Shown here: positions 10,861-36,953 of the stretch, piece after piece
How the letters are laid out: each line of letters opens with the position of its first letter
Numbering within the stretch: the stretch's first letter is position 1
NCBI GenBank assembly: GCA_963727625.1
Contig: CAVSHR010000010.1
Location: 1 to 39,782, forward strand
Source of the DNA: an uncultured delta proteobacterium
GTDB taxonomy: Bacteria > Desulfobacterota > Binatia > UBA9968
Length of the DNA: 39,782 nucleotides
Direction of reading: 5' to 3'
Position numbers and translations under genes: made by a program
Notes under the pieces: model-generated
The model's database searches: none
Seen by the model: only the letters and a program-made list of their open reading frames with translations
What the model was told of the DNA's origin: nothing

Positions 10861-10933
<73 letters not shown>

Positions 10934-33679: not shown

Positions 33680-33883
33680 ATGCCAGAGAAAGCGAGATTG
33701 AAACGCAAATCCTATTTTGTCGATGAGCGCGCGCTTAACCGCGCCAAAAAAGCTCTTGGGGTAAAAACCGAGGCGGAGGTTATCCGCTTATCGGTCGAGC
33801 GTGTCGCCGAAATGGAGGAATTTTGGGAGTTTATGAAAAAAACTCGCCGGTCGCTCAAGCCTGGAAGCGTGGAGAAATCCTAA
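33680..33883 (+). CDS. Type II antitoxin, VapB-like (ribbon-helix-helix)
   Basis: KRKSYFVDERALNRAKKALGVKTEAEVIRLS. RBS GGAGG. Ends 1 nt before a PIN gene. Confidence 0.8.
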   Translation: MPEKARLKRKSYFVDERALNRAKKALGVKTEAEVIRLSVERVAEMEEFWEFMKKTRRSLKPGSVEKS

Positions 33884-33884
33884 G

Positions 33885-34301
33885 TTGGCCTTAGCCATTC
33901 TGGATACTAGTATTTATATCGATCACTGGGAACGCGGGTTATACCAGGACACACTGGAGAATCTCAGGCGAGCCTACATTATTCGCCATTCAGCAGTGGT
34001 CCTATCAGAGCTTCGGCGCGGAGCTCGCGGGCGTGACGCCGAGCGACTGGTCGCCAACCTTTTTGAATTGGCCACTGTCCGATGGCAACCTTCGGTGGCC
34101 GACTGGTGGGAGGCAGGCCGGCTTGTCCGAAACATCGGTGACAAGCAAAACTGGAACATAAACAAGCGGCGAGACTTCCAAAACGATGCTTTGATTGCAC
34201 TCACTGCGCGACGCCACGGAGCAACCGTGGTTACCGCCAATAGATCAGATTTCGAGTTGCTTCGATCGGCGCTGCGAATTTCAGTTCTCCTCGCTAGGTA
34301 A
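33885..34301 (+). CDS. PIN-domain toxin, VapC-like
   Basis: ILDTSIYI, VLSELRRG, NDALIA.TA, VTAN.SDF acidic PIN motif. Confidence 0.9.
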   Translation: MALAILDTSIYIDHWERGLYQDTLENLRRAYIIRHSAVVLSELRRGARGRDAERLVANLFELATVRWQPSVADWWEAGRLVRNIGDKQNWNINKRRDFQNDALIALTARRHGATVVTANRSDFELLRSALRISVLLAR

Positions 34302-35269: not shown

Positions 35270-35590
35270 TCAGGCACCCGGCGGGCGAAGGCCCTGGCTT
35301 TTTTGTGCCGCCTGGTCCATCTCTTCAGGCGTAACGAGAACCGTCGCTTTGACATGTACCGCCCCGGCGGCATTGGCAGCGAGTGACAGCGCGGCGGCGC
35401 TCACGTTATCCGGAAAATCCGCAACCGCGTAGACATCGGCGTCGCCAAACGCAAAATACAACGTCTCCAATTTACCGCCGACAGCGCCGAAGAGCTTGTC
35501 CACGGTTTGCCGCCGCTTGGTGCCTCCTTCACTGATAAGTCCCTTGATCCCGTCCCTGGTAAAAGACACCTGCATAAGAAACTTGGCCAT
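35270..35590 (-). CDS. GYD-domain protein
   Basis: SFT.DG.KGL, GGKLE..YFAFGDADVY, T.L.TPEEMD. RBS GGAGG. Confidence 0.88.
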   Translation of the reverse strand: MAKFLMQVSFTRDGIKGLISEGGTKRRQTVDKLFGAVGGKLETLYFAFGDADVYAVADFPDNVSAAALSLAANAAGAVHVKATVLVTPEEMDQAAQKSQGLRPPGA

Positions 35591-35713: not shown

Positions 35714-35998
35714 TTAGACCATCTTGCGCATCTCTCCGATCGAGAAAGCGCGGACAAATTTCATTTTCACGTTGCCTAACGACTGGGTGCTCGCCATGAA
35801 TTTGTGAATTGGTTCAGGGCTCTCCGCTTCGACGACAATCGCGGCGTCGTGCGAGCCGCCCGGCGTATAAAAGAGGTCTTTGACCTGGACGCCCAGCTTC
35901 GCCGCTTCGGCCTTGGACGCCTCGGCTCGATTTGGCGAATCTTTGATCCCGCGCCGGCCTTGATCGGTATAGTCCACTAAAATAACTCCCCTAGGCAT
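35714..35998 (-). CDS. GYD-domain protein (second, divergent copy)
   Basis: YTDQG..GIKDSP.R, FYTPGGSHD, GNV.....RAF...EM. RBS AGGAGG. Confidence 0.85.
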   Translation of the reverse strand: MPRGVILVDYTDQGRRGIKDSPNRAEASKAEAAKLGVQVKDLFYTPGGSHDAAIVVEAESPEPIHKFMASTQSLGNVKMKFVRAFSIGEMRKMV

Positions 35999-36132
35999 AA
36001 AGCACCTCCTTCAAAAATTCTTAAGACACTCGTTCCCTTGCGAATGACCACGAAACCTATCTAGATTCGCAACGCAGCTCTTTTCAACTGAGGTCAAAAG
36101 AAGACCTGAGCTGCCCCGATTAAGACTTCCGG

Positions 36133-36182
36133 AAACAAAAAAGCCAGCGCACTCCGGCACCGGGTGACCAGAGCGGCTGGCT
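36133..36182 (-). terminator. Intrinsic terminator in the leader upstream of the GYD genes
   Basis: AGCCAGC-CGCTCTGG...CCGGAGTG-C-GCTGGCT stem, with G-U pairs valid only on the minus strand, followed by TTTTTGTTT. Confidence 0.8.
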
Positions 36183-36200
36183 CTAAACTCTTCCGCACAT
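36183..36200 (-). other. Candidate 5-aa leader peptide MCGRV
   Basis: GGAGG-N5-ATG TGC GGA AGA GTT TAG. The stop codon directly abuts the terminator stem. Confidence 0.5.
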
Positions 36201-36629
36201 TTCCCCCTCCGCAAAACGTTTCGCGTTGTTTCATGGGCCTCAAATCACTCGAGAAGCCTGCTCAATGATGGGGGAGGCTTTGACTCTGAGAGACCTATCA
36301 CACCGAAAAACTCAGTCAAGCGAGTTCTGATTTTCTTCCGCCCGGAATTTGTCTGCGGCTTTACTACCAACATAAACGGTTTCGCTGACCGAGCGATGGG
36401 TCAACAGAATGCACACTTGAGAGATTTAACCGCAGCTCGGACATGAAATCAGCTTAAGCGGCGTGCGTCCAATGGGTTTCAATAGACCCTTCTTGAACGC
36501 CAAGCGGGACACCCGCACCATAGAGCCATCGCGGAAACATCGCCTTTCGGTCCCATTTAAATCGTCATGCATCAGGCGTTGAAGTATCGACTTGTTTTTC
36601 GGCGTCGAGTTTTCTATAAGAGCCAAACC

Positions 36630-36953
36630 ATGAAAATCATGCGACTCTACTCCGGGTCAGATGGCCGGTCACATTTCGATGCGATCGACGTGGAGATCGA
36701 CAAACTTCATCTTGGCGAAGGCATCGTTTTCCGCCACGTTGCCGCCAATTATATCAATAGCTGGCATACCGCGCCGCGCCGACAATACGTCATCAACCTC
36801 TCGGGCCAGAGTGAAGTTGAGATCGGCGACGGAACCAAACGAAAGTTGGGTCCTGGGGATATCTATCTGGCGGACGATACCACCGGTCAGGGCCATATCT
36901 CGCGAGCCGTCGGCAACCAGCCGCGTGTCTTTGTGACGATCCCTTTGAAATAA
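36630..36953 (+). CDS. Cupin-like protein
   Basis: RLYSGSDGRSHF, WHTAPRRQYVI.LSG..E...GDG, DDTTGQGH.SR. Confidence 0.85.
   Translation: MKIMRLYSGSDGRSHFDAIDVEIDKLHLGEGIVFRHVAANYINSWHTAPRRQYVINLSGQSEVEIGDGTKRKLGPGDIYLADDTTGQGHISRAVGNQPRVFVTIPLK

Follow-up and report, generated by a model that had tools for sequence, protein, structure and literature searches.

The DNA analysed here, a stretch of 39,782 nucleotides (nt) from an uncultured delta proteobacterium of the Binatia (contig CAVSHR010000010.1, hereafter the window), carries the 5' leader of an operon of two genes for GYD-domain proteins. Judged from sequence comparison, this leader is one copy of an undescribed multi-copy family of leaders of about 160 nt that have their own promoters and occur in uncultured bacteria. 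In the mechanism that we propose for the family, a sensor domain that sequesters the Shine-Dalgarno (SD) sequence probably gates the translation of a very short open reading frame (mini-ORF), and translation of this frame would in turn block an intrinsic terminator ahead of the genes.

Every leader element and both GYD genes lie on the minus strand of the window. Read in that direction, the leader consists of a promoter, a C-rich 5' domain, the motif GGAGGGGG-N2-ATG, four sense codons, a TAG stop codon, a hairpin, and a run of six U residues (Table 1). An earlier note on this DNA, made from the letters alone, had listed a TTGACT box, an AAGCCT...AGGCTT hairpin containing CCTCC, an SD, an MCGRV* minigene, a stem following with zero spacing, and a U-tract; all of these sequences are present on the minus strand, and the note's distance of "~135 nt" to the GYD start is close to the 139 nt that we measure from the end of the T-tract to the first start at 35998. 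The C-rich stretch AAGCCUCCCCC begins at 36280, and the segments AAGCCT (36280-36275) and AGGCTT (36259-36254) flank CCTCCCCC (36277-36270); the organism's own 16S ribosomal RNA (rRNA) ends in ...GATCACCTCCTTTCT. At the place of the window's extended -10 element, relatives keep GTGATAT; a generic promoter scan did not list the window element because position 6 of its hexamer is not T.

The terminator hairpin of the window leader alone folds at -31.5 kcal/mol, compared with a shuffle mean of -17.0 (standard deviation 2.3; z -6.2), none of 200 shuffles folds as well, and a consensus scan also places a terminator-like site at this hairpin. The A and G of the TAG codon are the first two paired bases of the hairpin, so that the mini-ORF ends inside the stem. 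Since the neighbouring upstream gene is divergent and lies on the opposite strand, the terminator closes no upstream gene; it stands between the promoter and the genes that this promoter should serve. Two longer open reading frames (ORFs) that overlap the leader, of 49 and 67 amino acids (aa), are not conserved in the alignments, and the 67-aa ORF, which was the one tested, has no Pfam match.

Table 1. Elements of the window leader and the genes that follow it (SD, Shine-Dalgarno; R1, covariance model of the leader family; MFE, minimum free energy).
Feature	Position	Strand	Basis or detail
-35 box TTGACT	36314..36319	minus	sequence
Extended -10 TG-a-TAGGTC, 16 nt past the -35 box	36292..36300	minus	sequence
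Leader RNA element, full R1 match	36128..36290	minus	148.8 bits, E 2e-37
C-rich anti-SD segment CCUCCCCC, 5' strand of P1	36270..36277	minus	MFE and centroid folds, consensus
P2 hairpin GGCUUC ... GAGGCC, conserved GUGAU-containing loop	36236..36258	minus	consensus, single folds
P3 variable hairpin	36210..36225	minus	single-sequence folds
Shine-Dalgarno GGAGGGGG, 3' strand of P1	36203..36210	minus	sequence
Mini-ORF ATG TGC GGA AGA GTT TAG (MCGRV*)	36183..36200	minus	sequence; ATG 36200-36198, TAG 36185-36183
Intrinsic terminator: hairpin 36184-36140 (45 nt) and U6 36142-36137	36137..36184	minus	folding
GYD gene 1 (94 aa)	35714..35998	minus	PF08734, 68.8 bits, cut-off 31.4
GYD gene 2 (106 aa)	35270..35590	minus	PF08734, 86.6 bits, cut-off 31.4

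The leader recurs widely within its own order. A 641-nt intergenic DNA query matched 11 of 41 genomes (10 of the 40 relatives) over query positions 321-510, the part of the query that the earlier note had flagged, at 67-79% identity, with several copies per genome in some relatives. A covariance model, R1, built from 13 leader copies, finds three copies in the window's own genome and matches 48 of the 123 genomes of the order: 42/89 in family f1, 5/5 in f2 and 0/28 in f3. These matches extend across 21 of 27 genera, and a single assembly has as many as 23 copies; the scan gave 150 listed matches and 32 further ones. Under stricter filters, R1 matched none of 150 other genomes of the phylum, sampled from 75 families. 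The family counts include three unpublished genomes (G005, G076 and G079), and two G005 copies were among the R1 seed rows; no conclusion on the family depends on these genomes alone. A scan for the exact pattern, with one genome per species, returned 15 stretches, all from metagenome-assembled genomes, whose labels are mutually discordant (nine Deltaproteobacteria bacterium, three Candidatus Binatia, and one each of Ca. Udaeobacter sp., Verrucomicrobia bacterium and Pyrinomonadaceae bacterium). Because the leader arrangement recurs as a family, it is far beyond chance. For the analyses that follow, we used a family set of 102 R1 matches from 100 stretches.

Just 5' of most copies, 101 aligned upstream segments show TTGACA, 16 nt, and TG-n-TAT; with a promoter directly 5' of it, each copy is the 5' end of its own transcript. 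The earlier note did not recognise the element as a described leader, and neither do we. Scanning Rfam 15 with the whole window at gathering thresholds, a check that the note had proposed, matched a transfer RNA (tRNA) only and left the leader without a match; positions 35900-36700 (801 nt), scanned at E up to 10, gave Bp2_287 as the best hit, whose 18.4 bits fall short of its gathering score of 70. The literature on structured RNAs and riboswitches of Binatia/Binatota and on GYD, main texts being the scope, yielded no published description.

The other two copies in the window's own genome are diverged: L022:1501-1667 (G000:C5:307229-307395, plus strand) scores 51.5 bits and L023:1501-1644 (G000:C5:861318-861461, plus strand) 35.6 bits. 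L022 has no C-rich core, its 12-codon frame (M..RIV) ends at a stop adjoining the terminator, and a Haem_oxygenas_2/TENA-like gene lies 3' of it; in L023 the frame is lost. Elsewhere, L014 and L017 (G029:C6:3945-4109 and C5:458422-458586) match each other exactly, flanks included, and lie on different contigs of the same assembly; the segment was either duplicated recently or is an assembly repeat.

The consensus structure of the family has four parts: P1, a helix formed by the C-run and the SD's G-run; P2 (GGCUUC/GAGGCC); a variable P3; and the terminator. The paired fraction of the 2777 cells in the 102-row alignment is 91.9% and drops to 41-52% once partners are shifted by 1-3 columns; both sides have changed in 23 of 29 pairs, and none of 500 shuffles matches the observed values. 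In the consensus alignment, P1 (helix 1) is 91.3% paired and P2 (helix 3) 92.1%; P2 is mostly conserved rather than covarying, and GAGG is invariant in all 70 aligned cores. P3 varies in length and sequence with its complementarity retained, and is missing from many f2 copies. The two terminator helices are 94.3% (helix 4) and 81.4% (helix 5) paired, and 12 of their 17 pairs have changed on both sides; sequence conservation marks the lower stem, which includes a bulged U and G-U pairs, and covariation is seen in the upper stem. P1 and P2, with or without P3, form with the SD buried in five of five single-sequence folds, and in both copies of one genome (L069 and L077 of G071) a C-to-G change in the anti-SD segment is matched by G-to-C in the SD, a compensation missing from a third copy that has the anti-SD change. 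The family thus has a structured candidate sensor domain with covariation support, as riboswitches do, with P1 and P2 mostly conserved and the alignment fitted to the model. A possible pseudoknot between loop and junction (AUCAU/GUGAU) is 72% paired and is not retained in f2 copies. No antiterminator directed against the 5' arm of the terminator was found in the folds or the consensus; only weak alternatives of 5-6 bp were seen by eye.

We also considered and rejected mimicry of the 16S rRNA 3' end. The 10-mer TCGTAACAAG, a sequence that the 16S rRNA of the organism also has a short distance ahead of its CCUCC tail, adjoins CCUCC in only 7 of 100 copies, the window copy not among them; it stands just 5' of GCCUCC in L024, L034, L068 and others, and is too rare to carry weight.

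The mini-ORF was scored on 100 matches, two partial ones being excluded, and falls into five classes. Class A (42/100) has an SD and ATG, 3-5 sense codons, and a stop adjoining the stem. Class B (27/100) has an SD and an ATG at about -13, in the other frame, which enters the terminator; 14 of these frames end within +2 to +60, in many cases at +29 in the loop, and the other 13 extend beyond. Class C (6/100) has a 12-codon frame that begins in P3 and ends at the class-A stop position, class D (6/100) has only a near-cognate codon at -18 (one of the six, L019, is really a copy with an overlapping upstream ORF, or uORF), and class E (19/100) has no SD-ATG frame by the criteria used. Taken together, 69 of 100 copies place an SD-ATG 9-21 nt 5' of the terminator stem, using two different frames, and mini-ORFs of different length stay in frame (-12, -15, -18 and -39). 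Among the 39 class-A copies with the ATG at exactly -18, the SD G-run is nearly invariant, and the peptides are MKRRV (9), MNRRV (7), MHRRV (3) and relatives, with the consensus M-[KNH]-R-R-V. In codons 2, 3 and 5 it is the third position that is conserved least; AGA alternates with AGG, and GTT with GTC and GTA. What is robustly conserved is the placement of the SD-ATG before the terminator and no particular peptide, which is the pattern expected if it is the act of translation that matters.

The triplet before the stem is TAG in 34 copies, TAA in 25, TGA in 12, TGG in three, and another in 26. We dropped the variety of stop codons as proof of a stop, the purines of a U-purine-purine triplet being also paired in the base of the stem. 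A rare-codon signal was likewise set aside: AGA and AGG make up 8.3% and 6.6% of the Arg codons in the long ORFs of the window and are only moderately rare.

The leaders face the genes that follow them. Within the 600 nt downstream, 85 of 99 copies have their longest open frame on the strand of the element, and so the family does not show the independent orientation expected of genes for trans-acting small RNAs. Among the 123 downstream ORFs that were scanned, GYD is the most frequent family (23), followed by POR_N (4), POR (4), ABM (4), tRNA_edit (3) and Glyoxalase (3), with 76 Pfam families in total, and a GYD-GYD pair also lies 3' of the element in L002 and L006. The GYD starts are found 23-176 nt past the terminator; in several copies the distance is only 23-62 nt, which leaves little room for another promoter.

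The 5' core is also used without the remainder of the leader. R2, a sequence-only profile of this core with no base pairs, picks up more copies than R1 does, with 43 in G033, 17 in G029, 11 in G031, and three each in G025 and G027. In some of them the SD-ATG of the core is the start codon of an LMWPc phosphatase (28.6 bits), and in others that of a GAF protein; elsewhere a class-B ATG is joined in frame to an Lcl_C protein (54.9 bits), or the core precedes a 19-codon uORF that overlaps the start of an alpha/beta hydrolase. Because genuine genes can begin directly at the core, we conclude that it is a ribosome-binding site on which the 5' domain acts. One putative sensor is thus joined to four kinds of expression platform, namely the terminator with its mini-ORF, the SD-ATG start of LMWPc and GAF genes, the uORF that overlaps the hydrolase start, and a further conserved module; this combination is a hallmark of riboswitch-like control. 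In L132, L133, L136 and L142, all on G033 contigs, the core is followed by GGGAAUUCUUGGGUUCUUG...GGC...CCAAAAG...AUUCUUAUCAUUAAA and not by a mini-ORF and terminator; this conserved stretch may be a third output module. In G031, L088:737-783 and L089:678-790 are terminator-only modules about 190 nt past the first element and just 5' of a GYD gene, a layout that suggests tandem attenuators.

An upstream terminator is no general rule for GYD genes. Among 27 sampled genes (26 from other families of the phylum and one, the third copy, from the window's genome), only a few have a terminator-like hairpin within 130 nt. Ahead of that third GYD gene (846545-846811, minus strand), locus L156 (G000:C4) combines a promoter of the TTGACA type with a leader about 135 nt long and a strong hairpin of -22.5 kcal/mol with U7, 35 nt before the GYD start; R1 missed this unit, whose terminator resembles that of the family.

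The earlier note had read the window leader as an attenuator whose minigene would be conserved together with the hairpin, and the family bears out the arrangement: a conserved, promoter-proximal leader precedes same-strand genes, usually with an SD-ATG and in 42 copies with a stop abutting the stem. The exact MCGRV minigene is not conserved, however, and conservation with the hairpin is itself partial, in that 27 copies use the other frame and 19 have none. Of the signals that the note considered, cysteine supply is unlikely, the MCGRV peptide with its TGC codon being unique to the window among the 39 class-A mini-ORFs, whereas an upstream switch fits the pairing of the C-rich segment with the SD in the consensus and in all five single folds. 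The AAGCCT/AGGCTT hairpin drawn in the note is not favoured, as the consensus and all five single folds leave it unused.

The proposed mechanism combines two modules. In the first, CCUCCCCC would pair with the SD G-run to form P1, which would close a junction with P2 and P3 and hide the ribosome-binding site by default. The second is the SD-AUG with its very short frame, whose stop would lie inside the base of the terminator or whose frame would enter the terminator. With the SD hidden, no ribosome would load, the terminator would fold, and transcription would end about 140 nt before the GYD start. A trigger that opens P1 would allow the mini-ORF to be translated and bring a ribosome onto the 5' arm of the terminator, either at a stop with a spacing of zero to the stem (class A) or within a frame that passes through the arm (class B). 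About 10 nt past the A site are shielded by a ribosome that stands on a stop codon; a hairpin covered in this way could not close, and RNA polymerase would continue into the GYD genes. Sequence comparison shows how the leader is built, that it is conserved, that it forms a family, how its copies are oriented and that its modules are reused; the switching of the SD, the translation of the mini-ORF, and the read-through that it would cause are inferred. There is precedent for the last step: in E. coli, a translated stop 5 bp before a terminator cut termination from ~90% to <10%, an effect that was gone without translation (PMC4824070), and the pyrL attenuator is suppressed by the trailing ribosome (PMC5021804).

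Several observations weigh against this mechanism. The 102-row alignment (A2) was fitted to the model and therefore favours the model's structure, and the 5' domain folds no better than shuffled sequences (z +0.17, -2.0, -2.1, -0.3 and 0.0). P1 is mostly conserved and covaries little, and several registers of the C-run and G-run fit about equally. Furthermore, GCCUC, GGCUUC and GAGGCC can form three mutually exclusive pairings that leave similar fractions of cells paired, namely 77% for GCCUC/GAGGC, 82% for GGCUUC/GAGGCC, and 77% for the AAGCCT/AGGCTT hairpin, which is no better than the other two; this three-way pairing may be a genuine switch or may be the chance product of a palindrome resembling GGCC. 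On the side of translation, 19 of 100 copies are without an SD-ATG frame and six have only a near-cognate codon, the use of TAG, TAA and TGA against TGG is weak evidence for a stop codon, and the purine-rich AGAAGAG could be conserved as RNA and not as Arg codons. The downstream genes form no coherent pathway, and for that reason no ligand can be proposed. Finally, ribosome loading would be limited to about 60 nt of transcription, and a pause of the polymerase may be needed for it.

Some of these points would be accommodated by a switch made of RNA alone, in which the 5' domain binds a metabolite, an ion, a protein or a small RNA, refolding by itself controls the terminator or ribosome-binding site, and the ATG and its frame are by-products of a purine-rich, SD-like sequence. 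The frame is, after all, missing in 19 copies and differs between classes A and B; the lower terminator stem, with its bulged U and G-U pairs, and the AGAAGAGUUUAG that precedes it are conserved in sequence beyond the needs of a plain terminator; and a modular core with 43 copies in one genome is what riboswitches for global signals show. We nevertheless consider such a switch unlikely: the antiterminator that would compete with the 5' arm was not found in folds or alignments, a properly SD-spaced ATG is kept in most copies in two frames with insertions and deletions that stay in frame, and the same SD-ATG is a real protein start in other copies of the family.

The copies could also be the genes of trans-acting small RNAs of about 150 nt, with their own promoter, a C-rich seed that targets SD sequences, and a terminator, or could combine a cis and a trans role. 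A promoter and a strong terminator for each copy, an exposed-looking C-rich motif complementary to SD sequences, and a high copy number per genome are consistent with this, but the strand bias of the downstream frames, with starts as near as 23-62 nt, the pairing of the C-run with the RNA's own SD, and the fusion of the 5' core to coding starts in some copies make it very unlikely, although a combined role is conceivable. Least of all do the data resemble a dispersed, promoter-bearing repeat without any regulated decision, whose hairpin would be a leaky terminator or a stabiliser and whose conservation would reflect recent spread. The 23-43 copies in one 3.2-Mb assembly and the two identical copies in G029 are of the kind that such a repeat would leave; yet the copies diverge by 20-35% with their structure kept by compensatory changes and span 21 of 27 genera, terminal inverted repeats and transposase genes were not noticed beside them (no systematic search was made), and a -31.5 kcal/mol hairpin with U6 between promoter and gene would silence the gene unless it is overcome. 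We regard this explanation as extremely improbable.

Within the preferred explanation, that is, SD-gated translation of a mini-ORF that blocks the terminator, a more specific form can be put forward tentatively. The 5' core (GCCUCCCCC-AUCAUUGA-GGCUUC-GUGAU-GAGGCC), of which one 3.2-Mb genome has as many as 43 copies, might be a new riboswitch-like sensor for a global signal, whose native output would be ribosome access and which would be made transcriptional by a five-codon M-x-R-R-V frame with its stop in the terminator stem. In addition, R-R-V, the basic and conserved end of the peptide, might delay release at the stop and thereby prolong occlusion of the hairpin. An M-x-R-R-V frame with its stop in a terminator stem has not been described as a natural reusable module.

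Should the mechanism be correct, the family would represent an RNA control system on the scale of a large regulon in a poorly known uncultured lineage, and would offer a first handle on the control of GYD-domain genes, whose function is unknown. It would also be a compact natural converter of a translational into a transcriptional signal, by means of a mini-ORF stop inside a terminator, in a design small enough for synthetic biology. A sensor domain on several output modules makes the family suited to hunting for the ligand or trigger, and its numerous and diverse copies make the model directly testable with reporters in a laboratory host.

Elsewhere in the window, at 33680-34301 on the plus strand, a 67-aa ORF precedes the frame of a PIN-domain protein (PF01850, 35.9 bits) by 1 nt, a layout like that of toxin-antitoxin pairs of the VapBC type; the only match of the small ORF, to Imm35, is below threshold. 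The sole Rfam match at gathering thresholds is the tRNA gene at 10861-10933 (minus strand, 72.7 bits). The divergent neighbour of the leader is a cupin-like ORF at 36567-36953 (plus strand; Cupin_2 at 22.2 bits, under the cut-off of 27.2), which has a second in-frame ATG 21 codons downstream (MKIM...) and shares with the leader an intergenic region of about 570-630 nt.

Among known systems, the attenuators of the pyrimidine genes come close. In the pyrE attenuator of E. coli, the leader stop lies just before the hairpin, and class A leaders resemble it; class B leaders, whose frame runs through the hairpin, resemble pyrBI. In pyrBI, the pyrL leader frame reaches an intrinsic terminator and a ribosome on that frame suppresses termination (PMC5021804). 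Across the family, the stop abuts the stem in 42 + 6 of 100 copies and the frame enters the terminator in 27. In contrast to pyrBI and pyrE, the frame here has 3-5 (or 12-13) codons and follows an SD that the conserved 5' domain would hide, pyrimidine genes are not among the 25 commonest downstream families, a pause sensitive to uridine triphosphate is not evident, and the sequences are unrelated, with no Rfam match. The synthetic reporter of Li et al. (2016) is similar in that a translated stop a few bases before a terminator represses it, the spacing in the window being zero; that construct followed a full-length gene in E. coli (PMC4824070), whereas the window has a natural five-codon frame.

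The leaders share with trpL, hisL and pheL the order of promoter, SD, short leader frame, intrinsic terminator and structural genes. They differ from them in that no alternative hairpin set (1:2, 2:3, 3:4) was found and no codon run matches a pathway, the two Arg codons of most class-A frames preceding genes unrelated to arginine; in addition, it is the presence of a ribosome and not its upstream stalling that would allow read-through here. The ampC attenuator of E. coli has an SD, an AUG and a stop directly 5' of a terminator-like hairpin, with relief proposed to occur when ribosomes are plentiful, as a form of growth-rate control; unlike the present family, it is not known to have a conserved sensor domain or to be multi-copy. 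The basic K/R-R-R content of the mini-ORFs recalls macrolide stalling motifs. A very short leader frame 5' of a terminator is likewise found among the erm, cat and ABC-F stalling leaders, for example that of yxjB in B. subtilis (PMC6851288). Resistance families, however, are not among the 25 commonest downstream Pfam families (123 ORFs), and stalling in the resistance leaders remodels the RNA, whereas occupancy of the stop would act directly here.

SD-sequestering riboswitches resemble the family in having a structured 5' domain with the SD in its closing helix, joined to different platforms; they differ in that the present family shows no coherent regulon, would reach its terminator via a translated mini-ORF and not via an antiterminator helix, and is not in Rfam 15. 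The leader would thus act like the pyrBI, pyrE and ampC attenuators and like SD-sequestering riboswitches, yet belongs to none of these, and the family is best described as a putative translation-coupled attenuator behind a conserved sensor domain, multi-copy and hitherto undescribed.

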